A stretch of DNA of 15,001 bases. Origin: a virus. Taxonomy: Duplodnaviria; Heunggongvirae; Uroviricota; Caudoviricetes. The position numbers and the translations under genes are program-made. The notes under the pieces are model-generated. The model searched no databases, was not told the DNA's origin, and worked only from the letters and a program-made list of their open reading frames with translations. Every line of letters starts with the position of its first letter. Positions within the stretch are counted from its first letter, which is position 1. The stretch lies in the IMG/VR virus record IMGVR_UViG_2698536395_000029. The stretch is one strand, 5' to 3'. Positions 1 through 15,001 of the stretch are shown here, piece after piece.

Positions 1-165
1 ATGGCAAAGCCGATCATCACGCTCAATGGCCTAAAAATCGTCATTATGTTGGGAATGCTGGTCATTATTCTCTGCGGTATCCGTTTTGCCGCCGAGATCA
101 TCGTGCCGTTTATTCTCGCATTATTTATTGCTGTTATATATAACTTATTTCGCATAACACATTGA
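1..165 (+). pseudogene. tqsA: 5' fragment of an AI-2E family transporter gene (TqsA/YdgG-like), interrupted by the inserted element
   Basis: ATG at 1; the first ~45 codons ([45 protein letters not shown]) read like the N-terminal membrane helix of E. coli TqsA as I recall it. After codon 45 the frame enters AT-rich sequence (IYNLFRITH) and stops at 163-165, 54 aa instead of ~340. Identification is from memory, not a search. Confidence 0.5.
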
Positions 166-186
166 TTTAATTAAATAATTAACACC

Positions 187-211
187 GCAAAAAGTGCCAA
201 AAATCGCAAAA
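187..211. promoter_or_regulatory. Phased A-tracts (probable intrinsically bent DNA) in the left arm
   Basis: gcAAAAAgtgccAAAAAtcgcAAAAtg: A4-5 tracts recurring at roughly 10-bp spacing, as in att arms and IHF-bent regions. Confidence 0.4.
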
Positions 212-233
212 TGACTACACCAGTGACTACACC
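212..233. repeat. Tandem direct repeat TGACTACACC x2 (12-bp period); candidate integrase arm-type site
   Basis: Exact 10-mer at 212-221 and 224-233, about 80-100 bp inside the inferred left junction. Confidence 0.5.
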
Positions 234-250
234 GTTCGGTGCACTGTATG

Positions 251-276
251 AAACAACGTGGAACAAATAGACACAA
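251..276 (+). promoter_or_regulatory. Phased hexamer array AAACAA-N4-GAACAA-N4-ACACAA (10-bp period)
   Basis: Hexamers at 251-256, 261-266 and 271-276. The 15-mer AACAACGTGGAACAA (252-266) recurs exactly at 7715-7729. Confidence 0.5.
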
Positions 277-344
277 GAAATATACAGGCGGATCATCTTT
301 CCAGGGGGAAGCACACCAATTCATGAGGGGCGTTAATGTCGATA

Positions 345-356
345 TGGGGATCCCCA
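345..356. repeat. 12-bp perfect palindrome TGGGGATCCCCA
   Basis: Reads identically on both strands. Followed at 361-377 by the inverted repeat CCGGAA-T5-TTCCGG. Confidence 0.6.
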
Positions 357-499
357 CCTACCGGAATTTTTTTCCGGTTAAACGTTAATCAGGCTGGTGG
401 GCTTTACCTGTTCGGTAGGTGTTATGATTATCGTAATACCTTTCCCCCAATGGGGTAAAAGCATCAACCGTAACGAAAGTCGTTATGGTTGCCACTGAT

Positions 500-577
500 A
501 CCCCAAATTTGGGTATCACGAGTAAGCCCCAAAATCTGGGTGTTACTCTTACTACCCAAACTACGGGTAGTTTCCGT
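500..577. repeat. Three tandem ~26-bp units, each a small CCCAAA...GGGT palindrome, ending in a 9-bp stem (AAACTACGG / CCGTAGTTT)
   Basis: Units 500-525 (taccccaaatttgggtatcacgagta), 526-551 (agccccaaaatctgggtgttactctt) and 552-577 (actacccaaactacgggtagtttccg). A related motif cccccaatgggg lies at 445-456. Confidence 0.6.
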
Positions 578-589
578 AGTTTCATGGTC

Positions 590-609
590 GAGTTGCAGAT
601 CTGCAACTC
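590..609. repeat. 20-bp perfect palindrome GAGTTGCAGATCTGCAACTC
   Basis: Exact reverse-complement symmetry centred on AGATCT. Confidence 0.7.
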
Positions 610-863
610 CCCCATTAACCACAGGCGAATTTCCGCCTTCGGTCATTCCTTAATCATCTGCGTAATCATAATGATTATTCAGCAAGCGCAATTTTGCGCT
701 TTGCTTAAAGTTCAGCGAGTTACCGCGCCGACTTCCTCAAATTGAGGTTTCCGAAAATATCAGCGGGTTAGCGATTAAGCTGACCATTAATTAAACTGCG
801 AAAATGTCGTAGTTGTGAGGGGTGTAGCCAACCCATTTTTGGGCCGTCGGGAATATCAACCAG

Positions 864-1145
864 TTACCGCCGCAACCGCTCCGGCTTCTTCCAGTGGTAC
901 GTGATTTTCTCCTTCTCCCGATACAGTTCAACGCGGCGATTGTAGGCCAGCATTTCAAGAACGCGGATCCGTATGTCGCGCATATCCGCATCATTAAGCT
1001 GGATACCATCACGGCGCATCACCTCAGCAACAACACGCGCATAATTTTCGGCTGTCACGCTGTCCGGCTGCGTGGTCTGTTCGTCAGCCTGCTGGCTGAT
1101 TCCAGAGACGCGGCGGATTAATCGCAGTATTTCGGCTTCTGTCAT
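864..1145 (-). CDS. Hypothetical protein (93 aa), last gene of the packaging operon
   Basis: ATG at 1145 preceded by GAGGT; begins 14 nt after the TerL stop on the same strand. No family recognised. Confidence 0.5.
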   Translation of the reverse strand: MTEAEILRLIRRVSGISQQADEQTTQPDSVTAENYARVVAEVMRRDGIQLNDADMRDIRIRVLEMLAYNRRVELYREKEKITYHWKKPERLRR

Positions 1146-1158: not shown

Positions 1159-2820
1159 TTACACCCCGCTAAATTCTTCCAGTTTCTGGCGGTGGCTGTC
1201 GCTTATATCAAAAGCAAAATCCTCATGCTCTGCCTGGAATGTACCAAACGCCATCAGCGCCGCTACGCTCGGGTCTATCTTGTTCGGTGATTTTTTCTTG
1301 TTCGGCTTGATATTGGCGTTCGCGTCACTCTGCATCACGACGTTACTCATCGACCAGGACAACACCGGATCGCCACGATGCACAATCACCCTGCGGTTAA
1401 CAAAAACTTCGAACGATTTCGCCGCCGGACTGAATCTGAGGTAGGTTTGCGGGAACGGCTCCACCTCAAAACCAGCCCCCTGTAATTGCGTCCTGAGATG
1501 CGTGGCGTTCCACGTATCAAAGCCCACCAGCCTGATATTAAATTTCTCCGCATCCTGCATGATGTCATCTCTGATCCGGTCGTAATCAATGCAGTCACCT
1601 GGCGTTGTGCGTATCCAGCCCGCTTTAGCCCACTGGCGATAGACAGCGCGGTTTTTATTGGCGGGGTTCTGTAGCTGGAACTCCGGCAGATAATGACGGG
1701 AAACCAGCATGATATTTTTACCGACCGGAAAGGCATAGCACACGCTGGAAATATCGCTGGTTGATGATAAGTCCAGCCCCGCGTAACACTCCTGCCCGTG
1801 TAAATCTTCCTCCGTGAACGTTCCGGCACACTCAGCCCATGCGCCGTTACCCATCCACGGGGTAGCCCCCTGGCACCAGATATTAAATCGCTTTGTCATC
1901 ATCTCCACCCACTGCGACGGAATACCCCGCGCTTTCTGGATGGTTGAGGCCAGTTTTTCACGATCGACGGAAACATCAATATTAGGGTTCGCCTTTATCC
2001 ACATCGCCGGATCATCAACCTCGTTTTCGTCGTCCAGCTCGTAAATCAGTACAAAAATTGAATCGTTAACCTCTTCGCCGTCCAGGATCTGGCAGCAATA
2101 ATCATAGTGCTGTTTACAGGCTGAAACGACGTTGCTGCCTGATGTGGTAATGGCAAATAACAGCCCTTCGGGACGTGCGCCCATCCCCAGCTCAAGCGCG
2201 GAATAAACGCCGTTATCGGGGTGCAAGTGGTATTCGTCCACGATGGAAAGGCTTGGGTTTGTTCCCTCGATGGTTGCCGCTTTTGCTGCCAGCGGCTTTA
2301 ACAGGCTGTTGCTTTTCGGGTGTATCACCTTATGCGCCTGAATATTCACCCGCCTGCGTAACGGTCGGGATAAAAGGCACATCTGACGCGCATCATCAAA
2401 GACGATCCGCGCCTGGTCACGGCTCACCGCTGCGGTGTAGATATCCTGCTGACCGTTCTCCATAATCAGAAACCAGTTAGCCAGAATCGCGGCGGTCGTG
2501 GATTTCGCATTTTTGCGCGGCACTTCGATAAAGGCGCTCGTGTATTTGCGCCGTCCGGTGGCCTTAACCTTAAAGCCGAGGATGCACGCAAAGGCGAACT
2601 GCTGCCACGGCTCCAGCTCAATGGGTCTGCCACGCATCGGTCCTTTTACGTGCGGGCACACCCTGGAAAAGGCAATAAACCGCTCCACAACCTCACGATC
2701 GAACGTGTAAAGGGGGCTTTTAAGGTCCGAAAAGTACCGTTTAACGGCCTGTTTCAGCCGTTTACAGGCCGGAATTTTGCCCGTTTTTACGTCTTCTGCG
2801 TACTTATTCCAGGCGGTCAA
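1159..2820 (-). CDS. terL: Terminase large subunit (Terminase_1-like ATPase/nuclease)
   Basis: 553 aa; Walker-A-like PRKNAKST near residue 100; size and position after TerS. Start per ORF track is TTG at 2820, overlapping the TerS stop; next in-frame ATG is ~60 codons in, so the exact start is uncertain. Confidence 0.9.
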   Translation of the reverse strand: MTAWNKYAEDVKTGKIPACKRLKQAVKRYFSDLKSPLYTFDREVVERFIAFSRVCPHVKGPMRGRPIELEPWQQFAFACILGFKVKATGRRKYTSAFIEVPRKNAKSTTAAILANWFLIMENGQQDIYTAAVSRDQARIVFDDARQMCLLSRPLRRRVNIQAHKVIHPKSNSLLKPLAAKAATIEGTNPSLSIVDEYHLHPDNGVYSALELGMGARPEGLLFAITTSGSNVVSACKQHYDYCCQILDGEEVNDSIFVLIYELDDENEVDDPAMWIKANPNIDVSVDREKLASTIQKARGIPSQWVEMMTKRFNIWCQGATPWMGNGAWAECAGTFTEEDLHGQECYAGLDLSSTSDISSVCYAFPVGKNIMLVSRHYLPEFQLQNPANKNRAVYRQWAKAGWIRTTPGDCIDYDRIRDDIMQDAEKFNIRLVGFDTWNATHLRTQLQGAGFEVEPFPQTYLRFSPAAKSFEVFVNRRVIVHRGDPVLSWSMSNVVMQSDANANIKPNKKKSPNKIDPSVAALMAFGTFQAEHEDFAFDISDSHRQKLEEFSGV

Positions 2821-3160
2821 GCTCGTCCTCTTCTTCTGTTTCCGGTGGGTTTTTACGGCGGCTTATCGGGTCAAAACCGAGCAAGGAGGCCATTTTTATC
2901 ATCACCCTTTCAGCGTCTGATTTCGCGCTTAATGCGGGGTTTCTGCTCTCGCCGCCCTGACTGTTAACAATGCTGAACCCGCGCGCCGCAAGGTCTGCGA
3001 CGGCTTTCCGGTAAATGGAGTAGTTGACACAATACAGTTCCAGATTGCTCCAGTCGGCGGGGGTCAGGTCTCCCCGTTCCGCAAGCTGCCGCGATTTTTC
3101 CCGCCACTGCTTCACGGCGATGTCATCCAGGTAGGCGGGGGCTTTCGGTGGTCTTGCCAT
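2804..3160 (-). CDS. terS: Terminase small subunit (P27-family-like)
   Basis: 118 aa; N-terminus MARPPKAPAYLDD and the YCVNYSIY motif are typical of P27-type TerS; sits immediately upstream of and overlapping TerL. Confidence 0.8.
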   Translation of the reverse strand: MARPPKAPAYLDDIAVKQWREKSRQLAERGDLTPADWSNLELYCVNYSIYRKAVADLAARGFSIVNSQGGESRNPALSAKSDAERVMIKMASLLGFDPISRRKNPPETEEEDELDRLE

Positions 3161-3448
3161 GCTTATTTTTCGTCAGATTATTTTTCAAAAAATTCCCGTG
3201 CATAAAAATTTGAGGAGGCGTTCGGTGCCCGGCGGGGTCGGGTTTGTCCTGAAAACGCCCCCCACCCCGTCATACAGCCTCATCAGCGATTGCGGAAACA
3301 TTCCATAACCTCGCGGTCACGGTCGGTTAATCGCTTCGCTGTGATGCGTTCTGCGCGTCCTGACGCTTTATCTTTATGCCCTGTTTCCTGTGTCTTCCAT
3401 GCGTCACGCTGCCTTATAAGTCCACGGATAAGGCGGTTTTGTTCCCGC
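3161..3448. other. Candidate cos (packaging) region between HNH and TerS
   Basis: 288-bp non-coding gap in the HNH-gap-TerS-TerL arrangement where HK97-like cos phages carry cos. Contains the G/C-rich tract ggtgcccggcggggtcgggtttgtcc (~3225-3250). Position-based inference only. Confidence 0.35.
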
Positions 3449-3889
3449 TCATTCATCAGCGTCATACATCCAGTTATTGCGGTTAGCGGCCCGTTCTTCC
3501 TCTTCACGAAATCCACCTGCGGCACGCTTGCTTTTTGTTGCCGGATCAAGCCACTTCGTTTTCTGGTTATGACACGCCTGGCACAATGGCTGATGGTTCC
3601 ATTCGGGCCAGAAGAGAACATCATCACCGCCATTAATCGGGATAATGTGATCCACCACCACGGCGGGCGTATATATCCCCTTCTCAAGGCATCGCACGCA
3701 TAACGGGTTTTTACTCAGATACATGGCGCGGTATTTTTCCCACTGTCTGGAGTACCCACGCGCGCGGCGGTGTCCTCGTCTGGCATCCTCTGCACGCCAT
3801 GCCGCCCGCCTGTGCTCCTCACACTTGCCGGACTTAACGCGCCTGTTACAGCCTGGTTCTGTACATCGTCTTAATGGTTGCCACGGCAT
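3449..3889 (-). CDS. HNH endonuclease (terminase-associated)
   Basis: 146 aa; cysteine pairs CTEPGC and CVRC, then DHIIP...N...W..NHQPLCQACHNQKT, an HNH signature. ATG at 3889 overlaps the connector stop. Confidence 0.9.
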   Translation of the reverse strand: MPWQPLRRCTEPGCNRRVKSGKCEEHRRAAWRAEDARRGHRRARGYSRQWEKYRAMYLSKNPLCVRCLEKGIYTPAVVVDHIIPINGGDDVLFWPEWNHQPLCQACHNQKTKWLDPATKSKRAAGGFREEEERAANRNNWMYDADE

Positions 3890-4185
3890 CAGTACACCCC
3901 CACATCACGGTAAGCCGTCCAGAGCGCGCCTATCGTCATGGGTACGCGCGTTTTTGCGTTATCCGCTACCAGCTGGCGATTCTCGTACAGGTGAGCGATA
4001 AACATCATGCAGCCAATCTTTATGGCTGGCGTGAACTCCAGCCCGTCATCAAAGCGCCTGCCTATATGTATCTGGCACGCCTCAAGCGATGCGGCAATGT
4101 ATCCGCTGATTAACTGGTCTTCCTCGTCGCCATCGATGCGGCAATGGAGTTTCACTTCTTCCAGGGTGATAAGTTCTTCTGTCAT
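3889..4185 (-). CDS. Head-tail connector protein (gp6-like)
   Basis: 98 aa; N-terminus MTEELITLEEVKLHCRIDGDEEDQLISGYIAAS matches the gp6-like connector pattern (LEE.K.HLRID.DDED.LI). SD GAGGG upstream; ATGA overlap with the adaptor gene. Confidence 0.75.
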   Translation of the reverse strand: MTEELITLEEVKLHCRIDGDEEDQLISGYIAASLEACQIHIGRRFDDGLEFTPAIKIGCMMFIAHLYENRQLVADNAKTRVPMTIGALWTAYRDVGVY

Positions 4186-4520
4186 TTTTCCGCGCCCTCA
4201 CGACAAAGAATTTCAAGGCGTGTCCTGGCGGCATCCGGCAGCGGCTGCCCGATGATATTCAGTACACGCCCCGCCAGCGGCCCCGTATTGACCTTTATCC
4301 GGCTGGTGGCGTTGATGTCCTTCCGGTACCGTATCCAGATCCTTACGGTACCAATCGCCAGCTCTGCACCCGATGAAATGGCCTCCTTGCTGCTGATCAT
4401 GTTCACGCTTGCCCAGAGTGTGTGACCGTCCTCCCACGTTTCGAGTATTTCGCCGGTTATATCCCTGGTCTGTTTCAGGGTCTGAATCGTTACCCTGTCA
4501 CGCAGTCGCCCTATGTTCAT
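4182..4520 (-). CDS. Head-tail adaptor / head-closure protein
   Basis: Start taken at internal ATG 4520 (MNIGRLRDRVTIQ), which has a GAGGGAG SD and an ATGA overlap with the portal stop; the track's longer ORF starts at 4562. The motif RIWIRYRKDI...LEILCRE fits the head-tail adaptor family. Confidence 0.65.
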   Translation of the reverse strand: MNIGRLRDRVTIQTLKQTRDITGEILETWEDGHTLWASVNMISSKEAISSGAELAIGTVRIWIRYRKDINATSRIKVNTGPLAGRVLNIIGQPLPDAARTRLEILCREGAEK

Positions 4521-5728
4521 TCCGGTTTTTCTCCCTCGCTGATTTTTACTTCCTGTTTCCATGCCTGGCTGAACTCATCACCACCATCACGCGGGGACAG
4601 CCCTTCACGTTCGCGGGCTTCGTTCGGGCACATAACGCCGGATTTGATGCCGCGTTCATAGGTGGCAAAGCGTTCGCCAGGTGTGGCCCGTAACAGGTCC
4701 GCGCTGTCAAACTCCACCTGATACCGGATACCAGGTACAGGCGAGGCCACCAGCAGGGCGTTTTTTATCTGCTGCTCAAAGTTCGCCAGCCACGGGCGCA
4801 TTGTCATGGTGAGAAATGCGCGGCTTGCCTCGCTGAAATTGCTGTAGGTGCTGTTGCTGTATTCCTGCAGAAAAATCGGCGAGACGTTGAACATTCGGGC
4901 GATGTCTTCAATGGTGAAGCGACGGGAGGCCAGCCATTCAGCATCCTGATTACTCATGCCCAGCTGCTGATAGCTCATACCCCCTTCAAGGATGGGCGTT
5001 TTTCCGGCGTTTCTGGCCCCTTTGTAGCGTTCCAGTGCGGCTAATGCCTGTTTGCCCTTCACGCCGTCCAGCCATTCGCCTGACGTGATAACCCCTGCCG
5101 CCATCATGCCATCACGCATCACGCTCGCGCCGTGGCGTTGTTGGGCCAGCCCAAGCCCCAGCGATTCGCGGCAGATGGTTACAGGTGAGCGCCCCATAAA
5201 ACCGTCATCCGTGGAGTAACGAAGGTGGAGAACCTCCCACGGTAAATAGTTGCGGGTGTTTCCGGTGTAGGCGTCAGTGATGCAGTAGCGCCAGTTGTGT
5301 TCGCCTGTCTGCTCCACGTTCACCGACTGCGGCGGGTAAGGATGTAAAGCCACCGGAAAACCATCACGCCCCCACTGAATCACCGCATAAGCATTACCGT
5401 TTAACAGGCAGTGGCGGATCATCATTCGCTTAAACTGGTAGGGGGTTTGCCATGCGTTCGGGCGCTCGTTGAGGATGTGATCGACCGGATGAGAATCAAG
5501 CCACTCGCGGGCCTCCTTCCCCTTCTCATTGCGTACCAGGTACAGGTAACACGGCATGGTAGCCACCGCCTCAGAGATGACCGTCACGGCGTTCATGACG
5601 GCGGGCAGTGATTCCGCTGTCCCCGATGATACGTACTCACCCGCCCCCGTGTTCGATGTGCCAGCCAGCGCCATAAACTCATCAAGCGTCATGCTGCGCT
5701 GCTCTTTTTTTCTTCTGAAAGGCCACAT
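4517..5728 (-). CDS. Portal protein (HK97 family)
   Basis: 403 aa; length, composition and position between protease and adaptor; ATG at 5728 two nt after the protease stop. Confidence 0.85.
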   Translation of the reverse strand: MWPFRRKKEQRSMTLDEFMALAGTSNTGAGEYVSSGTAESLPAVMNAVTVISEAVATMPCYLYLVRNEKGKEAREWLDSHPVDHILNERPNAWQTPYQFKRMMIRHCLLNGNAYAVIQWGRDGFPVALHPYPPQSVNVEQTGEHNWRYCITDAYTGNTRNYLPWEVLHLRYSTDDGFMGRSPVTICRESLGLGLAQQRHGASVMRDGMMAAGVITSGEWLDGVKGKQALAALERYKGARNAGKTPILEGGMSYQQLGMSNQDAEWLASRRFTIEDIARMFNVSPIFLQEYSNSTYSNFSEASRAFLTMTMRPWLANFEQQIKNALLVASPVPGIRYQVEFDSADLLRATPGERFATYERGIKSGVMCPNEAREREGLSPRDGGDEFSQAWKQEVKISEGEKPE

Positions 5729-5729
5729 A

Positions 5730-6302
5730 TCACACCCCCGCTAAATCCGCCCACCAGCGGCGATTATCCGCACGCGGCATTTTTTCGGGGTGCTGCTCGT
5801 ACAGGGAGCGGCGGGCCAGCTCCACGCCGGAATCAGGGTAAGCCGGTACGGATGTGACGGTAATTTCGTACAGTTCCGCAACCAGCACGGTGCGCACGCA
5901 TGGATCTGTTGTGGTATCCCATACATCCTTACGGGAACGAAAGCCAAAGCTCATGCCGGATATATCACCACGTTTAACCAGTTCGATAACGTCCCGCCCT
6001 GTGCTGGTATCCGGTGGGGTCAGTTCAAAGCGTAACCCTGTTTCGTCCTCTTCCAGTTTCAGCGTGCCGGAACGGGTACGCCCCAGCAACATGCTGTGGT
6101 CATGCTCATACAGGCCGCGAACGTCATTACCCGCCGCAAGCCATTCAGTAAACGCTCCCCGCTGGAATTTTTCGTAAAACTCCCCCCATAGCAGCTCTGA
6201 AAGCTTATCCCAGCGAACAACGTAGCCTGTAAGCGTGTTGCTGGCGCTGGTGGTGATTTCCGATGACCGGATTTCCATACTCTTCATAATTTTTTCACCC
6301 AT
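5730..6302 (-). CDS. Prohead maturation protease (HK97 / U35-S78 family)
   Basis: 190 aa; motifs GYVVRWDKLS...GAF...LYEHD typical of HK97 prohead protease; lies directly after the capsid gene. Start may be ATG 6302 or ATG 6287. Confidence 0.8.
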   Translation of the reverse strand: MGEKIMKSMEIRSSEITTSASNTLTGYVVRWDKLSELLWGEFYEKFQRGAFTEWLAAGNDVRGLYEHDHSMLLGRTRSGTLKLEEDETGLRFELTPPDTSTGRDVIELVKRGDISGMSFGFRSRKDVWDTTTDPCVRTVLVAELYEITVTSVPAYPDSGVELARRSLYEQHPEKMPRADNRRWWADLAGV

Positions 6303-6311
6303 AAAACACTA

Positions 6312-6331
6312 AAGGGGCTTTTAAGCCCCTT
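6312..6331 (-). terminator. Stem-loop with T-rich tail between capsid and protease (likely partial terminator/attenuator)
   Basis: AAGGGGC-ttttaa-GCCCCTT; on the minus strand the hairpin is followed by TTTAGTGTTTTAT, 10 nt after the capsid stop. Confidence 0.4.
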
Positions 6332-6341
6332 CTGTATGCTG

Positions 6342-7790: not shown

Positions 7791-8015
7791 TCAGTCCCTG
7801 ATCCCTTTCAGAAATTCTATCAATGCATCTATCTGTTCAGGATTTACCGCCAGCATTTCACCGGATAGAGCACATCTAACAAAACCATGCTGATCCTTTT
7901 CAATCAGTGCGCCCGTCTCCAGGAATGCGCGGTAATCATTGATGCTCATCGTCTCCATGTTGTCAGCATGGTATTTATCACGCTGTTTTAATATCTCATC
8001 AAATTTCATCGGCAT
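7791..8015 (-). CDS. Hypothetical protein (74 aa), orphan gene bracketed by two near-identical terminators
   Basis: ATG at 8015 with AGAGGA SD 8 nt upstream (MPMKFDEILKQ...); the track's longer start at 8093 has no SD. Acidic, no family recognised. Confidence 0.55.
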   Translation of the reverse strand: MPMKFDEILKQRDKYHADNMETMSINDYRAFLETGALIEKDQHGFVRCALSGEMLAVNPEQIDALIEFLKGIRD

Positions 8016-8133: not shown

Positions 8134-8140
8134 TGTGTGA

Positions 8141-8413
8141 TTAGCTGTCCTGGTAATTGCGCCATATTTCATCACCAGCACCATCTATCCCCATTTCGGC
8201 ATAAGTGCGATCGACTGCCTTTTTCAGGTCTCCGTAATTATCCGGTGGCTCCGGTGGCCTCTGTGCCTTCCTGCAACATTCCAGCCGTCGCATCGTAACC
8301 TGATGCCGTTCCTTGTCTGTCTCCACCAGCAGCATGACTTCACCCCATCGCGCCGCCGCCCTCCGGTAAAAGCCTTTCGCCTCGAGTTCTTCCGCTATGC
8401 GGTCATGTACCAT
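8141..8413 (-). CDS. PerC-family-like transcriptional regulator (90 aa)
   Basis: Start taken at ATG 8413 (MVHDRIAEEL) with GAGGGGG SD. The motif AEELEAKGFYRRAAARWGEV...MRRLEC resembles the PerC/Pch signature (A..LE..G.WRRAA..W). From memory. Confidence 0.5.
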   Translation of the reverse strand: MVHDRIAEELEAKGFYRRAAARWGEVMLLVETDKERHQVTMRRLECCRKAQRPPEPPDNYGDLKKAVDRTYAEMGIDGAGDEIWRNYQDS

Positions 8414-8423: not shown

Positions 8424-8834
8424 TCAGAACGGAATACCGTCACCGTAAGGGTCATCGCCTCCCGCTGGTGGCTGATTACCCTGTGTGCCTGTGGTTTTGC
8501 GTCTGTTCCCGCCAGGAAGTGCCGCACGGGCACTGATTACGCTGTCTGCAATAACCTGATAACCCTGCCGCGTTTCCCCATTCTGTCCGGTCCACTGGCT
8601 GACCTGCATCGTGCCGGATACGCTGGCAACGTCGCCTTTTTGATGTTTAGCCAGGAAGTCGGCCTGCTTACCAAATGCGATGACCGATAGCCATAACGTC
8701 GCCTGCCCATCCTGCGCCTGACTACATGGCAGCGATACCGCCATACGCGCCAGCGTCATCGGTGTACCCTTGCTGGTCTGTTTTACCTGCGGGTCGTCCA
8801 CCAGCCGCCCGTAAGCTGCTATCTGTGCTGTCAT
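8424..8834 (-). CDS. ssb: Single-stranded DNA-binding protein
   Basis: 136 aa; the OB-fold core aligns with E. coli SSB landmarks (LWLSVIAFGKQADFLAKHQKGD vs [22 protein letters not shown]); Gly/Pro/Gln-rich linker; acidic tail DDPYGDGIPF like the SSB DDDIPF tip. Confidence 0.8.
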   Translation of the reverse strand: MTAQIAAYGRLVDDPQVKQTSKGTPMTLARMAVSLPCSQAQDGQATLWLSVIAFGKQADFLAKHQKGDVASVSGTMQVSQWTGQNGETRQGYQVIADSVISARAALPGGNRRKTTGTQGNQPPAGGDDPYGDGIPF

Positions 8835-9109
8835 GATTCCACCTCTCCGGTTTTAACGTTGATGGTTGTTACCTGTTCCGCTTCGGCAATCTCCCGCTCT
8901 GTCAGCGTGGCAAAATTTGCCGCCGTCGTGGTCATGAATGCGCTTATCAGTTCGGGATGTGCTTTCGCGTATCCTTCCCCCGCGTGGCGGTCTATCGTTC
9001 TGATTGCCACCTTTAAAGCGTGCTCTGTCATGTCTAACGCGCGATATTTCGGTTCTGTTCTGTCTCTGCGTTTTTTGAGTGATTTATTAAATTTCCCTGA
9101 AGTGTGCAT
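8831..9109 (-). CDS. Hypothetical protein (92 aa), first gene after the origin
   Basis: ATG at 9109; stop overlaps the SSB start (ATGA). No family recognised. Confidence 0.5.
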   Translation of the reverse strand: MHTSGKFNKSLKKRRDRTEPKYRALDMTEHALKVAIRTIDRHAGEGYAKAHPELISAFMTTTAANFATLTEREIAEAEQVTTINVKTGEVES

Positions 9110-9158
9110 ATTTATTTTTACCCCCTCGTTTAAAAAGTTTTGAGTTGTGCCTCCCCTT

Positions 9159-9382
9159 GTCTACCTTATCTACCTTAGTGGCCCTCATACCAGTAATGGC
9201 GCGGCTTTCAGCTGGGTAGAGTGCTTTTATCCACTATCTACCCCGTGTCTACCTCCCTGTCTGATTCAGGTAAAATCAGGTAGAGAGGGTAGATAGTGGG
9301 TAGACAGTAAAAAAAGGCTATCTACCTAACTTAATGCACTGAATTAAATGTATTTTTCTTTACTCAGGTAGACAGGGTAGAC
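9159..9382. repeat. Iteron-type replication origin
   Basis: At least 11 copies of the 7-mer GGTAGA[C/T/G] or its complement in both orientations (9159, 9168, 9215, 9236, 9247, 9279, 9288, 9299, 9320, 9367, 9376), often at 9-11 bp spacing, flanking an AT-rich stretch at 9330-9366. Lies directly downstream of the primase stop. Confidence 0.75.
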
Positions 9383-9397
9383 AGCAATTACAAAAAA

Positions 9398-11152
9398 TTA
9401 TAAAAACGCGTCGCACTCGTCTGTTGTTATTGCGTTAGTCTGCGTTACTCCCTTAACTTTCCGCGTAATATATTCATGTCCGTAAACTTTCGCGGCTGGC
9501 TTCATAGCCTTGCCAAAGTCATTTACGTTTAGCGGTTTGCTCCTGCCTGCGTACGCCATAAACGCCAGATAGACGCGGTAAAGGCTGTTTCTGGTCGTGT
9601 ACTTCACTGAATCGCCACCGCCGCCCATCATCAGGCCGCGTGCTTCCTCCAGAAAATTCAGGAACTGGCAAAACTCAATAACCGGATCCGTCTGTTGCTT
9701 TATTGCCAGAGCTTCATCACCGTCACGCTGTTCCAGTAGTAAAGCCCGTGCCTTCTCAGGGTCGGTAAAGTTCGCCAGCAATCGGCGGATAATGACAGGG
9801 ATTTCAGCCGCGATCTTTTCCGGTAGCTCCCTGTCTTTTTCGGCCTCACTGACGATATTGTCGAAACGGAAAATCACGCGACGACGTGCCACACCTCCGG
9901 CCCGTTCGGTGAATATCATCGGGTTATTGTTGGTCGCCAGCACCACCGCCCTGATTACAGCCGTGAAACGCTTTTCGTATTTCGGGTTAATTTCCACGGG
10001 GTCACCGCCCGTGATTTTCTTGATGCCCGTTCCTTCGCCTGTATATTTCGGCTGGTCAGCCAGGACGATAAGACGACTCCCGACAACCTGCGCACGTCCA
10101 CCAGCATCATCAAGCGATGTCATTTCAGCGCTTACCGTGTTCTGTTTCCCTGCCAGAAGGCTGGCTATGTGCGTGAATGTACTTTTACCGCTCCCGCCGT
10201 CTCCGGTGGCCTCAATAAACATCTGCCAGTCGTACCGGTTCGCCATAATCATGTACAGCGCGGCACATATACGCATCATCTTGCGCGGGTCTTTTCCGGC
10301 TGCGTGCTCAAGCCATTTATGAAAGTTTGGCGCGTTATCGCGGATGTTCTCCCCTGGTGCTGGTGGCGTGTACTCAATGCCGTTGTGCGTGGTGATCCAG
10401 TTCTCCGGCGTGTGCGGGGAAAATTCCCCCGTTTTCAGGTCAAGCGCACCATTGGCGAACGGCAGCAAATCGCCGGACGGCTCGCCCATTGGTTCGGCAA
10501 TAACTTTTAACGCTTCCACGGCGTTATTGATTACGCGCTTGCTGAAAGTGGCCCTGTGCTCTGAATAGATCGCCACCATTTCGCGGCTAAGTTCCATTGT
10601 GCTGACCGGACACCATACCCCGCCGCGCCATACGTGAACGATTTCACTTTCAGGATGTACGCAAACGCCATCAAAGCGATCGGCAAGCAGCTGCGCGCGC
10701 TCACTGTCCGCCATCTGCGAAAGTTGCGCCTTTTGCTTTACCGGAAGCTCAATGACCAGACCATCAGAAAGATTCTGGCGCTCACGAGCCAGATATTCGC
10801 GCCAGTTCTCCACCTTCTGACCGTGCATACCATCAGGGTAAAAATTTGCATCCTGTACGCCTGCCGCCGCCAGCTTCTGACCAATCGCCTTTATCATTAC
10901 TGGCGCAAGATATCCGGCCCTGAATATGCGCACGGATTTTCTGCCTTCCGGCACAATTTGCAGCTTATCCAGTTCGGATAACTGCTGCTCCCCAAGCCAC
11001 ACAGGAGGCTCATTATCTCCGGCCATACGCGCGTCATGTTCCTGCCATTGTTTTGCGTGTGACCAGGCATCACTACCCGCAAAAATAATGACTTCTGTTT
11101 CTTTGTGTTTTATGCCGCGTGACTGCTGTTTTACGTTCGGTGCCAGTTTCAT
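9398..11152 (-). CDS. Primase/helicase replication protein (P4-alpha-like; D5-type NTPase C-terminal domain)
   Basis: 584 aa; Walker A GDGGSGKST at ~residue 318 with the surrounding D5/P4-family helicase context; N-terminal primase-like region; iteron origin immediately downstream. Confidence 0.85.
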   Translation of the reverse strand: MKLAPNVKQQSRGIKHKETEVIIFAGSDAWSHAKQWQEHDARMAGDNEPPVWLGEQQLSELDKLQIVPEGRKSVRIFRAGYLAPVMIKAIGQKLAAAGVQDANFYPDGMHGQKVENWREYLARERQNLSDGLVIELPVKQKAQLSQMADSERAQLLADRFDGVCVHPESEIVHVWRGGVWCPVSTMELSREMVAIYSEHRATFSKRVINNAVEALKVIAEPMGEPSGDLLPFANGALDLKTGEFSPHTPENWITTHNGIEYTPPAPGENIRDNAPNFHKWLEHAAGKDPRKMMRICAALYMIMANRYDWQMFIEATGDGGSGKSTFTHIASLLAGKQNTVSAEMTSLDDAGGRAQVVGSRLIVLADQPKYTGEGTGIKKITGGDPVEINPKYEKRFTAVIRAVVLATNNNPMIFTERAGGVARRRVIFRFDNIVSEAEKDRELPEKIAAEIPVIIRRLLANFTDPEKARALLLEQRDGDEALAIKQQTDPVIEFCQFLNFLEEARGLMMGGGGDSVKYTTRNSLYRVYLAFMAYAGRSKPLNVNDFGKAMKPAAKVYGHEYITRKVKGVTQTNAITTDECDAFL

Positions 11153-11448
11153 TTTTTACCCCTGAATACGTTAAGCATCTTTTTTATTTCCTGAATATTG
11201 GCGCGTGCTTTCTTCCTGCTGGTTGGTTTACTGCGGGGCGCTGCCTGTACCAGAGAAAAATCACGCCGAAACTGATAAACAGGCATCACGCAATCATATT
11301 CGTAGCCTTCACGGCGGTAGGTTACGCGCCGTTCTTCCACGCCCTTAATCATTACCGTGCCGCCGTACTGGTCGCGGTAAATATCACCGCGCGTAAATTT
11401 AGGGTGAGTGTTGCCACTGGCAGTTAAGCCAGAATATTTAAGTTTCAT
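11149..11448 (-). CDS. Hypothetical basic protein (99 aa)
   Basis: ATG at 11448 with GGAG SD; stop overlaps the primase ATG (ATGA). Confidence 0.55.
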   Translation of the reverse strand: MKLKYSGLTASGNTHPKFTRGDIYRDQYGGTVMIKGVEERRVTYRREGYEYDCVMPVYQFRRDFSLVQAAPRSKPTSRKKARANIQEIKKMLNVFRGKK

Positions 11449-11453
11449 TATTT

Positions 11454-11687
11454 TTATTCTCCGGTGTGCTGTTCTTTATATCTGTCGTGCAATAGATCTA
11501 TTTCTTGCAGTTCCATTATTACAGGCTCAAGAAGCGTTATTAATGCCGTGGCAATTCTTGATTTTTGTTTGTCGCGTTCATTGTCGCCAAGTGTTTCAAG
11601 CCATATGCGCAATATTTCCAGCATGTTTTCACTGTGAGAAAGTGCAAGAAATGCGCGGTATATTGTTTCGTGGTAAATATCACGCAT
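11454..11687 (-). CDS. Hypothetical protein (77 aa)
   Basis: ATG at 11687 with GAGGATG SD; overlaps the upstream gene by 8 nt. Confidence 0.5.
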   Translation of the reverse strand: MRDIYHETIYRAFLALSHSENMLEILRIWLETLGDNERDKQKSRIATALITLLEPVIMELQEIDLLHDRYKEQHTGE

Positions 11688-11913
11688 GGCTTACATCCTC
11701 AGGAAATTTTCTTCTGTAATGCGCCTCTGCCACATATTCCGCATAATCGGCGGCGATATTCAGTACATCAAGCCCCGTTGATTTATATTCTCTCGTGGAA
11801 AGTAAGAAAAAAGCCGCTCTAATAAGCTCTGGCATTGACGAAAGCGCATCAGCCGCATCATCAGGAACGCCGGAAAATTCCTGTTTCAGGGAATTAAAAC
11901 GATCATCACGCAT
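11680..11913 (-). CDS. Hypothetical acidic protein (77 aa)
   Basis: Start set at ATG 11913 (MRDDRFNS) with GGGGGTGG SD; the track's 11940 start lacks an SD and overlaps the upstream gene. Confidence 0.5.
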   Translation of the reverse strand: MRDDRFNSLKQEFSGVPDDAADALSSMPELIRAAFFLLSTREYKSTGLDVLNIAADYAEYVAEAHYRRKFPEDVSHA

Positions 11914-12145
11914 AACCACCCCCATTTTCACAATCAGCAATCAGGATGGCTTTAGCCTCATTCAGCGCCATATCAGCACTAAGTTGCATAACCGCCAGCG
12001 AATGAGGAACGAAAGCCCCGGCATATTCTGTTTCACTGGTGTCGTGCTTATGCGCCCTGTCAGCAATAACAGAAATATCAATCAGCGCATGCATTAGCGT
12101 TATGATGGCTTCGGCGGCTGCGTCCGGACGGGTGTTATTGCACAT
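11906..12145 (-). CDS. Hypothetical protein (79 aa)
   Basis: ATG at 12145 preceded by CAGGAGG; overlaps the stop of the 68-aa gene. Confidence 0.5.
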   Translation of the reverse strand: MCNNTRPDAAAEAIITLMHALIDISVIADRAHKHDTSETEYAGAFVPHSLAVMQLSADMALNEAKAILIADCENGGGYA

Positions 12146-12341
12146 GGCACACCTCCTGACGAATACGGGCAGCGAATACCATCACGCAGCCAGCCGGAGA
12201 TTGCTGGCGTGCTTCCTGTTCGCTGGTGGCCTCAATGGTAATCACGCGCGGTTGTGCCGTGCTCAGGGCGATAAAACGCCAGATGTATTTATTCAGGTCG
12301 TGCGAGTCCCGCCCTTGCGGGTGTGTGGTATGATTTCTCAT
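12135..12341 (-). CDS. Hypothetical protein (68 aa); first gene of the replication operon, possibly Icd-like
   Basis: ATG at 12341 with GAGGT SD. It is the only plausible part of the 342-aa track ORF; the upstream 274 codons are Cys/Arg/Ser-rich antisense of real plus-strand genes. The motif YIWRFIALS...EARQQ...VFAAR vaguely recalls Icd-like proteins (low confidence). Confidence 0.5.
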   Translation of the reverse strand: MRNHTTHPQGRDSHDLNKYIWRFIALSTAQPRVITIEATSEQEARQQSPAGCVMVFAARIRQEVCHVQ

Positions 12342-12379
12342 AGCTACCTCGATACTTTCGCTATCGTTGGTGGTTAGAA

Positions 12380-12410
12380 GCCCTGCGAGTGGTAACGACA
12401 CTTGCGGGGC
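12380..12410. promoter_or_regulatory. Imperfect 12-bp inverted repeat in the divergent control region
   Basis: GCCCTGCGAGTG-gtaacga-CACTTGCGGGGC (10/12 complementary at DNA level); lies in the 5' leader of the minus-strand operon. Confidence 0.45.
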
Positions 12411-12438
12411 TTTGCATTTATGCACCTTGATAATCTCA

Positions 12439-12474
12439 AGGTGTGGCCCACTATATGCTTTAGGTGTGGCCCAC
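12439..12474. promoter_or_regulatory. Two exact 13-bp direct repeats AGGTGTGGCCCAC (candidate operator) overlapping a sigma70-like promoter
   Basis: Copies at 12439-12451 and 12462-12474, 23 bp apart; TTGATA at 12427-12432 and TATACT at 12506-12511 are plausible promoter hexamers upstream of the gene starting at 12541. Confidence 0.5.
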
Positions 12475-12540
12475 GTCAAGGGTTTTATTTGTGCTTTTTC
12501 TGTGTATACTGTCCCCCACCAATCCAACAGAGGAATAGAA

Positions 12541-12720
12541 ATGGCAACGGGTACAACAAACGCAAAATCACAAGCTCTAAAGGCTCGTGTACCACACGAA
12601 ATAGTAAACGCCATGGAATCAGTGAAAGAATCAGGCGAAAGCACATCACAATTCATCATTGCGTCAATGCAAGGCGAGATCAAACGCCGCCAGCGCCGCA
12701 AGGCCAAAGAATCAGAATAA
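12541..12720 (+). CDS. Small DNA-binding protein, probable ribbon-helix-helix fold (59 aa)
   Basis: ATG at 12541 with AGAGGAA SD. The pattern LKARVPHEIVNAMESVKESGESTSQFIIASMQGEI (strand, helix, G-S/T turn, helix) and a basic tail fit CopG/Arc-type RHH proteins. Confidence 0.55.
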   Translation: MATGTTNAKSQALKARVPHEIVNAMESVKESGESTSQFIIASMQGEIKRRQRRKAKESE

Positions 12721-12762
12721 TCACTATCAGCGCCGTGGTGTGAGGTATTACGGCGCATTGCT

Positions 12763-12951
12763 ATGCAGGACAACACAATGACCGATAAAGAATTGACCAA
12801 AACATTATCACCGGCACGGAAAAGACGGCGCAGAAAGATAGAACATGAATCAGAAAGATTCGCGCCATGTGCTTTTGCCCTTGAGCAATTCCTTAAAGAG
12901 TACAGGGAAAAGCGCTCATTGCAGGTATGGCAACGAACTGAACCAGACTGA
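12763..12951 (+). CDS. Hypothetical basic protein (62 aa; start may be 12778)
   Basis: ORF 43 nt downstream of the RHH gene on the same strand, with a poly-basic stretch ARKRRRRK; the SD is weak, so coding status is uncertain. Confidence 0.4.
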   Translation: MQDNTMTDKELTKTLSPARKRRRRKIEHESERFAPCAFALEQFLKEYREKRSLQVWQRTEPD

Positions 12952-13036
12952 TTGCATTGCCCACCAGCCTGATAGCGGCTATCATCCCCGTGCTTATGTT
13001 TGGGATCACACACACAAACGGCGCAGCGGGTTATCT

Positions 13037-13064
13037 GTTCAGAAAGGCGGCTCCATTTCGGGGC
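13037..13064 (+). terminator. Rho-independent terminator ending the plus-strand RHH operon
   Basis: GCGGCTCC-atttc-GGGGCCGC (8-bp stem with one G-U pair) followed by T7. Confidence 0.75.
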
Positions 13065-13220
13065 CGCTTTTTTTATGCCTGAAAAACCCCAATTTTGTGG
13101 TTTTCCAGTCTCACCAGGGCGAACGAATCCCCGCCCACGTTCTGGCGTATATTCAATCTTCATGGTTATAGCTCTGTGTTCAGATGATTGATGTGTGGCG
13201 GCTGTGTGCCGCCAGCGTGA

Positions 13221-13409
13221 TTAATGAACTGCCTTGCAGCTATCCTTCCAGGCCAGAACCTCGGATAAAGACCAGCCAACGGAACGACCGCCAAGTTTAC
13301 GACGTGATGGGAATTGTCCGGCCTTTTCCAGGCGGTAGCGGCATGAGCGGCTAAGGCCTGTTAGCTTTTCGCATTCTTTTTCACGTATAAACCGATCAGT
13401 GCTTAACAC
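13221..13409 (-). CDS. alpA: AlpA-family transcriptional regulator / excisionase-like HTH protein
   Basis: 62 aa; LTGLSRSCRYRLEKAGQFPSRRKLGGRSVGWSLSEVLAW matches the AlpA signature (TGLSRST.YR....G.FP.P.KLG.R.V.W...EV..W). Start is GTG at 13409 with AAGGGGG SD. Confidence 0.85.
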   Translation of the reverse strand: MLSTDRFIREKECEKLTGLSRSCRYRLEKAGQFPSRRKLGGRSVGWSLSEVLAWKDSCKAVH

Positions 13410-13568
13410 TATTGCCCCCTTTCGTTTCTTAAAGAGTTATTTCGTGTTCTATTGCGTTGGGATGTGTCTGATTGTGTCAGGATGATTCAGAGTTGGCAAA
13501 TGTTGAGGTCGTATGGTTTACAGAAACAGGAATAATCAGGATAAAATCATTTAAATTCATGTTAATAC

Positions 13569-13600
13569 AAAGGCATAAAATATTGTTTCATGCCTTTTTT
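13569..13600 (+). terminator. Terminator-like hairpin on the plus strand in the int-alpA intergenic region
   Basis: AAAGGCAT-(13-nt loop)-ATGCCTTT followed by TTTTTTCTC; no plus-strand gene upstream, so function unclear. Confidence 0.3.
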
Positions 13601-13692
13601 CTCGCCATTTAAAGAGTGATTCGCTAGTGTATAAAAAACCAGTAACACATTAAAAATCAGCCACTTATAAATCCGTACACTTTTTCGCCTCT

Positions 13693-13737
13693 TGTTCGTA
13701 GTTGTTCCGCATTGTTGCTCATTGTTGCATGTTGTAT
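13693..13737 (-). promoter_or_regulatory. Array of four to five TTGTT[C/G] hexamers at exact 10-bp phasing (minus strand GAACAA/CAACAA)
   Basis: Hexamers at 13693, 13703, 13713, 13723 and a degenerate one at 13732; about 285-330 bp upstream of alpA and 50-90 bp downstream of the int stop. Confidence 0.55.
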
Positions 13738-13750
13738 CTGTTCGCATATC

Positions 13751-13766
13751 CAGTATGCGCATACTG
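13751..13766. promoter_or_regulatory. 16-bp perfect palindrome CAGTATGCGCATACTG
   Basis: Exact dyad symmetry 18 bp downstream of the int stop; no U-run on the int strand, so more likely an operator than a terminator. Confidence 0.45.
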
Positions 13767-13783
13767 AAAAAACACGAAAAAAA

Positions 13784-15001
13784 TTATTTTCTTCTGGCTA
13801 CTGGTAGCGTGGTTACGTTTTCATGTGTTCCCGCCAGTATCCCTAACCGCTCCGTCCACATATCCAGCGCATTGCGTTTAGCATCCAGATAACGGGAATG
13901 ATTATAAACTCGCTGCATTCCTGGCATCTGATGACCTGTAAGCTGCTCCACGACATGCGGATCAACGCCTAAATCGTTCAGCATGGTTGTAAAGGTGCGC
14001 CGGATGTCATGCAGTGACCAGTGAGGATGATTAAGCCTCCTGTGCGCTAATCTTCCATACTGCGATACGCTGGCCTCCTGTTTCGCTTCCCCCAGCAATA
14101 AGCCCGTGTGCCTGTTCTGCTCCACCAGCTGCGTGACGAACGGCAGGATCGCTTCCGGTATGGGCCGGAATATTGCGACCTTCGTTTTGCTGTGCTCCTT
14201 CGGAACGGTCCATAGCATTTCCGTAAAATCCCACTCCCCGATCTCCGATAGCCTCAGTTCTACCGTCCTGGCTCCGAAGACAATCAGGAGGCGGATTAAC
14301 GCGACGTAGTAAGGGGAAAATATTTTTTTGTCCAGTGCCTGCAATAATTCGCCAAGTTCTTTGTTACTTAAGACACGTTCGCTTATATCCGGTTTTTTCC
14401 CAACGTCCGCCACGTTCAGATCGTCCAGAACGTTGCTGATTGCATAGCGCCGCCTACGGCAGAACTTAAGCGCCTGTTTGCACGCCTGTAGCACGAATCC
14501 GGCAGTAACAGGCGTTCGCTTTGCCACCTGGTCAAAACAGGCCAGCCAGTGCCGTAGCTCGCATTTATCCAGCGGCATAGCACCAATCTGCTGTATTACG
14601 TGATTATTAAGTCGCCTTTTCAGGGCGATATAATCCACGCGGTTTTCCTTTACGTAATACTCAAGCCAGTAGGTGAGCGCATCGCCAACCGTTACGGGCT
14701 TTAACGCTTCCTGTACGGTGTAATTCATCTCATGACGTGGATTTTTCCCCTCAGCCAGCCATGTGCGACACTGTGCGGCTTTTTCCCTGGCTGCTTTCAG
14801 GCTCAGATCAGGATAACTTCCCAGCTTAATGCGTTCGGGTCGTGTCTCCCTTCCCGTTCCGGCCCTGTATGTGAAATACCAGGTCAATTTCCCTGATGTT
14901 AAATATTTCACGCTCAGGTTTCCGCCATCACTATAAAACGTGTTTTTCTCCGCTGGCTTACCATGAAGTTTCCTTAGCAAGGTATCGCTCAGTTTGTTCA
15001 T
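13784..15001 (-). CDS. int: Tyrosine integrase (P4/CP4-57-type, N-terminal arm-binding domain plus catalytic domain)
   Basis: 405 aa; ATG at 15001, the window edge. The N-terminus (LSDTLLRKLHGKPAEK...YSDGGNLSVKY...WYFTYR) follows the P4-type arm-binding pattern; the C-terminus has HDIRRT and RVYNHSRY consistent with the H-x-x-R and catalytic Tyr. Confidence 0.9.
   Translation of the reverse strand: MNKLSDTLLRKLHGKPAEKNTFYSDGGNLSVKYLTSGKLTWYFTYRAGTGRETRPERIKLGSYPDLSLKAAREKAAQCRTWLAEGKNPRHEMNYTVQEALKPVTVGDALTYWLEYYVKENRVDYIALKRRLNNHVIQQIGAMPLDKCELRHWLACFDQVAKRTPVTAGFVLQACKQALKFCRRRRYAISNVLDDLNVADVGKKPDISERVLSNKELGELLQALDKKIFSPYYVALIRLLIVFGARTVELRLSEIGEWDFTEMLWTVPKEHSKTKVAIFRPIPEAILPFVTQLVEQNRHTGLLLGEAKQEASVSQYGRLAHRRLNHPHWSLHDIRRTFTTMLNDLGVDPHVVEQLTGHQMPGMQRVYNHSRYLDAKRNALDMWTERLGILAGTHENVTTLPVARRK

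Follow-up and report, generated by a model that had tools for sequence, protein, structure and literature searches.

The 15,001-nucleotide stretch of IMG/VR record IMGVR_UViG_2698536395_000029 (below, the window) carries a complete set of HK97-type head and DNA-packaging genes and no tail or lysis genes, and the question that it raises is whether such a locus is the residue of a prophage or a satellite that builds its own capsids. A preliminary description of the sequence favored the satellite. The present analysis leads to the same call, which is based on the size of the element, its structure bounded by attachment (att) repeats, its int-alpA-primase backbone, its tail-less packaging module, and its near-identity to a validated prototype. 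The window element is very probably an integrated capsid-forming phage-inducible chromosomal island (cf-PICI) that lies in the Escherichia coli gene tqsA and has a mosaic sibling in EcCIEDL933, the cf-PICI prototype from E. coli O157:H7 EDL933 (Alqurainy et al., bioRxiv 10.1101/2022.09.08.507074). As a near-identical variant of a published, experimentally characterized island, it is already known, and the locus is best annotated as a cf-PICI, not as a defective prophage.

Boundaries and gene content of the island

The island measures 15,060 bp between its 9-bp att repeats, which falls within the size of about 10-18 kb given for cf-PICIs as discrete integrated units. A three-way alignment of both junctions with uninterrupted K-12 tqsA places the insertion inside the tqsA coding sequence, with the direct repeat TGCTGTTAT on both sides. 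The preliminary description had let the module begin at position 136, which is nearly exact; the att core actually occupies 129-137. When the locus was extended to the right, the second copy of TGCTGTTAT was found 188 nt beyond the end of the window (window-equivalent 15189-15197), with no tail genes after int and core genes beyond. The closest database copy, in strain 20.1 (NZ_AP027170.1), has two differences from the window; its island is flanked by mdtJI and the 5' part of tqsA on one side and by the 3' part of tqsA and pntBA on the other. A tRNA scan of the window returned nothing, and the island targets a protein-coding gene instead of a tRNA gene. The left boundary is made up as follows:

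1-137, plus strand: 5' fragment of tqsA (autoinducer-2 exporter), interrupted by the island; it aligns with K-12 tqsA up to the att core and is a partial gene in the PGAP annotation of strain 20.1
129-137, no strand: att core TGCTGTTAT at the TerL-side junction

The island thus interrupts the gene of an autoinducer-2 exporter. The insertion cuts off the first 137 nt of tqsA (about 45 codons) from the remainder, which runs from position 27189 of the extended locus onward, and on manual reading the ATG that the island supplies at the junction is out of frame. In carriers of the island, tqsA is therefore probably inactivated.

Nearly all real genes of the window are on the minus strand, the single plus-strand gene being a YlcI/YnfO homologue. 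The packaging genes were assigned by Pfam, and the NCBIfam HK97 equivalogs agree. In the order of transcription, and with the identity of each protein to its EcCIEDL933 counterpart, the packaging region comprises:

6342-7499, minus strand: major capsid protein, HK97 fold, 385 aa (TIGR01554; 99.2%)
5730-6302, minus strand: prohead serine protease, S78, HK97 family (PF04586, TIGR01543; 99.5%)
4517-5728, minus strand: portal protein, HK97 family (PF04860, E = 9e-91; TIGR01537; 99.5%)
4182-4520, minus strand: head completion/closure protein Hc1 (PF05521, phrog_25, TIGR01563; 95.5%)
3889-4185, minus strand: gp6-like head-tail connector, 'adaptor Ad1' in PHROG (PF05135, phrog_40, TIGR01560; 99.0%)
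3449-3889, minus strand: HNH endonuclease (PF01844; 98.6%)
3283-3465, minus strand: 60-aa protein (phrog_3173; 100% to the protein at the same position)
3161-3282, minus strand: candidate cos region, G-rich tracts in the 122-bp gap upstream of terS, proposed from sequence and conservation, its exact site being a prediction
2804-3160, minus strand: small terminase TerS, P27 family (PF05119, TIGR01558; 100%)
1159-2820, minus strand: large terminase TerL, 553 aa, intact (Pfam TerL_ATPase and TerL_nuclease; 98.7%)
864-1145, minus strand: 93-aa conserved hypothetical protein, last gene of the island (phrog_1561, E = 1.5e-55; 93.5%)

The nine packaging proteins (capsid, protease, portal, head closure, head-tail connector, HNH, 60-aa protein, TerS, and TerL) have their full length, and their identity to the EcCIEDL933 proteins is 95.5-100%. 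The preliminary description had listed TerS, TerL, HNH, portal, protease, capsid, adaptor, and connector, and all of them are present, intact, and on the minus strand; compared with cf-PICI and phage sequences, TerL, portal, and capsid match EcCIEDL933 within the range just given for the packaging set. The order capsid-protease-portal followed by HNH-TerS-TerL had likewise been read correctly; it had been regarded as odd, however, and it is the published, conserved order of proteobacterial cf-PICIs.

The head is of the HK97 type, as TIGR01554, TIGR01537, and TIGR01543 all score far over their cut-offs. TerL is identical to EcCIEDL933 TerL at 546 of 553 residues without a gap, and its nearest solved structure is 6z6d, 'Terminase large subunit', which we take to be the TerL of HK97. 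The portal matches portal proteins in PDB, among them 'Phage portal protein, HK97 family' of the Rhodobacter capsulatus gene transfer agent (RcGTA). The capsid protein shares 382 of its 385 residues with PDB 9GYI, the cryo-EM capsid of EcCIEDL933, which is a T=4 shell of HK97 fold, 47.5 nm in size, for a 15.5-kb genome (bioRxiv 10.1101/2025.02.11.637232). HNH proteins are terminase cofactors in HK97-type cos packaging, and the 60-aa protein appears, by gene order, to correspond to EcCIEDL933 gene 1792.

In strain 20.1, PGAP flags TerL as frameshifted because of a 1-nt deletion at window position 2618, an instance of recent decay in one copy of the island. A frameshifted TerL was also considered for the window and rejected: the extra base at 2618 is present, and the open reading frame (ORF) is complete (553 codons). 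Between the capsid and protease genes, a strong terminator-like hairpin (6311-6332; nine pairs, then a T-rich tail) may act as an attenuator that lifts capsid output over that of the downstream genes. Homologues of the 93-aa protein occupy the matching position in classical PICIs; a locus search with this protein gave only two loci.

None of the ORFs scanned against Pfam and PHROG matched a tail, holin, endolysin, or CI-type repressor family, which bears out the earlier statement that the window lacks tail, lysis, and CI-type repressor genes. SatelliteFinder treats lysis genes and a tail module as forbidden components of a cf-PICI, and the portal, connector, and adaptor of a cf-PICI as forbidden components of a classical PICI. 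The two outcomes named in the preliminary description as contrary to its proposal were tail, lysis, or repressor genes contiguous with the module beyond the window and head genes degraded to pseudogenes. The flanks, searched for 12 kb on each side, consist of core genes and hold no tail, lysis, or immunity genes or remnants of them, and every packaging ORF is full length.

The remaining genes form the backbone of a satellite. From the integrase end, and again with identities to EcCIEDL933, they are:

13784-15001, minus strand: P4-type tyrosine integrase (Arm-DNA-bind_3 and Phage_integrase; 91% to EcCIEDL933 Int); its start codon, GTG by annotation, falls 12 nt outside the window
13221-13409, minus strand: AlpA, a regulator/excisionase-type helix-turn-helix protein (PF05930, E = 5e-18; phrog_2790; 98%)
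12715-13163, minus strand: truncated ash-like gene, first 149 codons (98% over 149 aa to a 247-aa EcCIEDL933 protein; PGAP pseudogene)
12541-12720, plus strand: YlcI/YnfO-family small protein (phrog_949, PGAP)
12135-12341, minus strand: Icd-like cell-division inhibitor homologue (NF033153, phrog_6196)
11454-11687, 11680-11913, and 11906-12145, minus strand: three small hypothetical genes of a variable region (PHROGs of unknown function; weak or no EcCIEDL933 match)
11149-11448, minus strand: DUF4222 protein (PF13973; 92%)
9398-11152, minus strand: primase/SF3 helicase with P4-family C-terminal domain, 584 aa (D5_N, DUF5906, Pox_D5; phrog_864 'DNA primase')
9153-9390, no strand: iteron origin just past the primase stop codon, about 12 copies of GGTAGAnAG and its complement in both orientations
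8831-9109, minus strand: 92-aa hypothetical protein (phrog_1231; 89%)
8424-8834, minus strand: single-stranded DNA-binding protein SSB (PF00436; 99%)
8141-8413, minus strand: PerC-family regulator, accessory (PF06069, E = 2.5e-44; 92%)
7791-8015, minus strand: 74-aa hypothetical protein (phrog_1957; 100%)

All four elements of the backbone proposed at the outset, namely the P4-type integrase, AlpA, the P4-like primase, and the iteron origin, are therefore in place. The integrase lies at one end of the island, as in a cf-PICI, AlpA represents the regulation module, and the replication module consists of the D5_N/DUF5906/TIGR01613 protein together with the iterons. The primase scores 109.1 bits against TIGR01613 ('primase, P4 family'; cut-off, 108.7). 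Exact copies of GGTAGAnAG number seven, all within 9234-9384, against an expected 0.19, and none of 200 shuffles reached seven; degenerate copies of the motif come on top of these.

Between alpA and DUF4222, a 342-aa ORF (12135-13163) was rejected as a gene, as it is a stop-free fusion of the ash-like fragment, the antisense of YnfO, and the Icd-like gene. The label 'ash family' is given in another PICI to a truncated gene in a similar position, and the arrangement of partial ash with YnfO also recurs in another PICI. PerC-like genes are common in Gram-negative PICIs. According to a paper citing Porter et al. 2005, the PerC-like protein of EcCIEDL933 had no effect on LEE1 promoter fusions, and that of another PICI was shown in the same paper to repress LEE, the enterocyte effacement locus. 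PADLOC recognized no known defense system among ten small or accessory proteins of the window.

The packaging module is widespread. Among 5,426 complete E. coli genomes, 538 match it, 418 of them over at least 80% of its length, and the whole window is covered to 80% or more in 167 genomes; the novelty implied in the preliminary description was thus overstated. A published survey lists 969 cf-PICIs, in 13% of Enterobacteriaceae genomes. Given that cf-PICIs were described in 2022-2023, that the capsid has been solved, and that about a thousand islands are catalogued, the discovery value of the locus itself is small. In a phage collection, the module had six matches: two 15-16-kb 'phages' with head and terminase genes, a 10.7-kb Pasteurella phage record matched by TerL only, two short unannotated fragments, and one 106-kb Klebsiella phage record. 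Of the two 15-16-kb 'phages', the one examined, vB_KppS-Ant (LR881103.1, 16.5 kb), has a cf-PICI-like gene layout. The 2.3-kb gene that follows its terL (2036-4333 of this record) is annotated 'tail length tape measure protein' and may be either cargo or a misannotation.

Relation to EcCIEDL933

The EcCIEDL933 locus was taken from the EDL933 chromosome and compared with the window at both the nucleotide and the protein level. The overall gene order is the same, the sizes are close (15.06 kb here and 15.4-15.5 kb for the prototype), and both islands carry the same four clusters of TTGTT repeats (see below). Over the 8,236 bp that begin with the 92-aa gene, include SSB, PerC, and the packaging operon, and finish with the last gene, the two are 97.3% identical. 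They differ in the att core, which is GGACATATTT in the roxA-phoQ intergenic region for EcCIEDL933, at about 1140 and about 16580 of the EDL933 locus, and ATAACAGCA in tqsA for the window element. The integrases are 91% identical and the att arms are otherwise homologous, yet the cores differ (ATAACAGCA versus GGACATATTT); a comparison of the two integrases lends itself to mapping what determines core specificity.

The replication modules differ as well: EcCIEDL933 has a 710-aa DUF927 replicase, whereas the window has the 584-aa D5_N/DUF5906 protein and the GGTAGAnAG iterons. Only the N-terminal 163 aa of the replicase match the prototype (at 82%), and the iteron field has no counterpart in EDL933. 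The non-homologous stretch extends over 9085-12714 of the window and 3618-7539 of the EDL933 locus, between flanking modules that are 92-97% identical. On this comparison, replicase and origin are swapped as one block relative to EcCIEDL933. Moreover, the small genes between alpA and DUF4222 are unlike, the ash-like gene of the window is cut at codon 149, and EcCIEDL933 lacks the hairpin cassette found at 492-614 of the window. The pair is a case of natural module swapping, in which attachment specificity and the replicase-origin block have been exchanged and the packaging operon has stayed nearly unchanged.

The function of EcCIEDL933 has been studied experimentally. The island is induced by the helper phages HK106 and HK446, and alpA is needed for its induction and transfer; according to published work, AlpA turns on PICI genes as well as its own promoter and is required when the island excises and replicates. 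EcCIEDL933 makes its own small capsids. Mutation of each packaging gene abolishes transfer and leaves replication and the helper unaffected, except for gene 1792, whose mutation severely reduces transfer. Helper mutants in capsid or terminase genes still transfer the island; helper tail mutants do not.

If the window copy works in the same way, a helper phage would turn on alpA, and AlpA would cause the P4-type integrase to excise the island at the TGCTGTTAT core and would activate the genes of the island. The primase/helicase would then copy the circle from the iteron origin with the help of the island SSB, and the capsid-protease-portal-closure-connector operon would give rise to small T=4 proheads of HK97 fold. 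HNH, TerS, and TerL would cut the cos site of the island, probably in the 122-bp gap upstream of terS, and one 15-kb genome would be packed per head. Finally, the closure and connector proteins would dock the tail of a helper or bystander siphophage, to which lysis would also be left.

cf-PICIs have been reported to have cohesive ends, and in the window the cos site likely lies in the gap between the 60-aa gene and terS. vB_KppS-Ant, a cf-PICI of 70% identity, also has the G-rich block upstream of terS, and its linear record stops within that block; this hints at the cos site without proving it, because the ends of a record can be chosen by convention. A lambda-type cosN is absent from the window, which fits self-contained packaging, whereas in the classical PICIs examined it is found upstream of terS. 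With respect to tails, cf-PICIs can release tail-less filled heads that gain tails from other phages, and compatibility is set by the adaptor and connector proteins: EcCIEDL933 heads accept HK106 tails and not HK022 tails. Since the connector is 99% and the closure protein 95.5% identical to the prototype, the same preference for HK106-type tails is predicted, with modest confidence, for the window copy.

Several points weigh against the assignment of the window to a working sibling of EcCIEDL933. Every functional step set out above is carried over from the prototype and so stands by analogy, and no helper phage is known for the source strain. The ash-like gene next to alpA is truncated, and the replicase-origin block is unlike that of the prototype. 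The head closure protein differs from its counterpart at 5 of 112 residues; since tail compatibility depends on the adaptor and connector proteins, the range of helpers may be different too. The TerL frameshift of strain 20.1 indicates that such islands do decay.

Some of these points could equally be taken to mean that the window copy is a cf-PICI by descent only, an immobile relic that is no longer induced, replicated, or packaged. The truncated ash-like gene beside alpA, the block swapped relative to the validated prototype, and the frameshifted TerL of the sister copy in strain 20.1 all argue in that direction, as does the published finding that no resident prophage of strain EDL933 induces EcCIEDL933, but they do so weakly. 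The ORFs of Int, AlpA, primase, SSB, and the nine packaging proteins are all intact, and so are the iterons, the att repeats, and the conserved TTGTT clusters. Furthermore, the recurrence of partial ash with YnfO in another PICI marks this arrangement as a common variant, not private decay. An inactive relic, the strongest of the rival readings, is thus quite unlikely, and an integrated cf-PICI closely related to EcCIEDL933 remains the preferred reading.

Repeats and hairpins in the non-coding regions

The non-coding parts of the island contain two sets of conserved elements, phased repeats and a hairpin cassette, that may have escaped description so far and could add to what is known of regulation in Gram-negative PICIs. 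Together with the further repeats of these regions, they are:

212-233, plus strand: two tandem copies of TGACTACACC, a putative integrase arm-type site, with a copy in the other att arm just past the window
252-276, minus strand: three phased TTGTT-N5 repeats in the att arm, 10-bp period
7715-7780, minus strand: terminator-like hairpin (7763-7780) and, after it, phased TTGTT repeats in three copies (7715-7739); the pair lies upstream of the capsid operon and is arranged in the same way in EcCIEDL933
13692-13736, plus strand: five phased TTGTT-N5 repeats between int and alpA, kept in EcCIEDL933
380-660, no strand: non-coding array of about seven consecutive hairpins or palindromes, with the core cassette at 492-614
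686-871, no strand: three units, each made up of a short, AT-looped GC hairpin and, after it, AATATCAnCnnGTTACCGC, a sequence similar to the consensus of integration host factor (IHF)

TTGTT clusters with a 10-bp period and three to five copies each occur in four places, the fourth being the far att arm just past the window end (27078-27102 of the extended locus). In the 39-kb locus, the pattern has 14 matches against 4.0 expected, and none of 100 shuffles reached 14; EcCIEDL933, with the same four clusters, has 13 matches against 1.75 expected, a number that none of 200 shuffles reached. Such a cluster also occurs in the att arm of one classical PICI. Proteins of the Xis/Vis type usually bind phased direct repeats, which suggests that the TTGTT clusters are putative binding sites of the Xis/Vis-like AlpA. 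Alternatively, they may be integrase arm-type sites; the TGACTACACC pair, present in both arms, looks the better candidate for that role. It is part of a 76-nt imperfect repeat between the two att arms that is kept in EcCIEDL933 and in classical PICIs.

If AlpA does bind the clusters, we infer that 7715-7780 is an AlpA-responsive promoter region and that 13692-13736 is the site of AlpA auto-activation, the latter because AlpA has been reported to activate its own promoter. Excision, the activation of AlpA itself, and packaging-operon transcription would then be linked through AlpA as a single protein. Scans for sigma-70 and terminator consensus sequences were not enriched over shuffles and served only to locate individual hairpins.

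The hairpin array at 380-660 has fold z-scores of -8.9 and -8.7 on the two strands and includes perfect palindromes of 20 and 22 bp. It has no match in Rfam, either at the gathering threshold for the whole window or at E <= 1 for 130-900. Of the 5,426 E. coli genomes, 706 contain its core (492-614), usually as a single copy; the phage collection has no record with it. The four other loci examined comprise classical PICIs at clpS and two helper-embedded PICIs, each inside a lambdoid major capsid gene; in all four, the cassette follows the last conserved gene. The cassette is 92-100% identical across cf-PICIs and classical PICIs and more divergent in the helper-embedded PICIs. When five sequences were compared by eye for covariation, one palindrome stayed symmetric through two-sided changes, and others were broken in variants of 77% identity.

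Two other identities were considered for the cassette. A dispersed repeat like miniature inverted-repeat transposable elements (MITEs) or repetitive extragenic palindromes (REPs) was rejected, as the cassette occurs about once per genome and at the same place in the four other PICI loci examined. A lambda-type cos site was rejected as well, cosN being absent from the window and located upstream of terS in classical PICIs. That the TTGTT set forms a shared AlpA operator and, jointly, that the 492-614 cassette is a satellite-specific mobile regulatory element or a small RNA is a tentative and rather doubtful proposal.

The three hairpin units with AATATCAnCnnGTTACCGC lie at 686-871. The IHF consensus is WATCAAnnnnTTR, and AATATCAnCnnGTTACCGC is accordingly designated a putative IHF site on the basis of this resemblance. 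EcCIEDL933 and classical PICIs carry more copies of hairpin and AATATCAnCnnGTTACCGC in the same distal non-coding region. In the helper-embedded PICIs, an 'abortive infection family protein' (5103-5864 of both loci) is encoded between the cassette and the att junction, a position that suggests that cargo is placed distal to the hairpin cassette.

Comparison with known systems

The capsid, portal, and prohead protease of the window belong to HK97 families, an HNH gene lies beside terS and terL, and the N-terminal capsid motif SxGxxAD, reported to be common to the EcCIEDL933 and HK97 capsids, is seen in the window as STGVPAD. The locus could on these grounds be regarded as the remnant of an HK97-like prophage from which tail, lysis, and immunity genes were deleted. 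However, att repeats bound it precisely, core genes lie directly outside, and there is no debris of tail genes; its backbone of alpA, DUF4222, P4-family primase, and PerC is that of a PICI; and the same compact module recurs in the 538 genomes given above. Furthermore, the phage-collection matches examined (the 106-kb Klebsiella record left out) include no tailed phage, and a published analysis found few genes shared with 3,725 phage genomes. The gene order is also different. HK97 has the order TerS-TerL-portal-protease-capsid-connector; that of the window, capsid-protease-portal-closure-connector-HNH-TerS-TerL, is the conserved order of cf-PICIs. The HK97 capsid has T=7 symmetry, whereas the EcCIEDL933 capsid has T=4 symmetry and no covalent cross-links; the window element, unlike HK97, has no tail or lysis genes, and sequence identity is low, the matches of TerL and portal to solved phage-type structures reaching only E = 1e-42 to 1e-31. 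A prophage remnant is thus very improbable.

Classical E. coli PICIs (EcCICFT073 type) and helper-embedded PICIs share with the window element the P4-type int, alpA, the Icd-like gene, DUF4222, primase, SSB, and the terminal gene of 91-93 aa, as well as the hairpin cassette at the same place and the TTGTT and ACTACACC repeats in the att arm. These PICIs have only capsid-like, head-decoration, and helix-turn-helix genes, terS, and a lambda-type cosN and depend on helper heads, whereas the window element has a full head and terminase set and no lambda cosN. P4-like satellites are recognized by the capsid-size and transactivation genes Sid, Psu, and Delta and by use of the cos of the helper. That the window is a classical PICI or a P4-like satellite that remodels helper capsids instead of building its own is, despite a backbone 70-88% identical in parts to classical E. 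coli PICIs at the nucleotide level and a distal non-coding cassette common to both, scarcely credible, given its own capsid, protease, portal, closure, connector, HNH, and TerL genes (portal, connector, and adaptor being forbidden for a classical PICI in SatelliteFinder), the lack in the window of the lambda-type cosN of the classical PICIs examined, and the fact that no Pfam or PHROG match of any ORF bears an annotation as Sid, Psu, or Delta.

With P4 the window element shares the P4-type integrase, the AlpA/Vis-type regulator, the C-terminal domain of the P4-family primase, and dependence on a helper for virion parts, and only int, alpA, and this primase domain are P4-like. In P4, the capsid protein of the helper is resized by Sid, and the helper terminase and cos are used; the window element encodes its own head and terminase. 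RcGTA, whose head is likewise small and of HK97 fold, is next-best among the solved relatives of the window capsid (E = 6e-46) and of the portal. The DNA packaged by RcGTA is random host DNA, and RcGTA lacks an integrase, a replicon, and a cos site. In contrast, the window element is a discrete mobile unit with an integrase, a replicon, and a candidate cos site.

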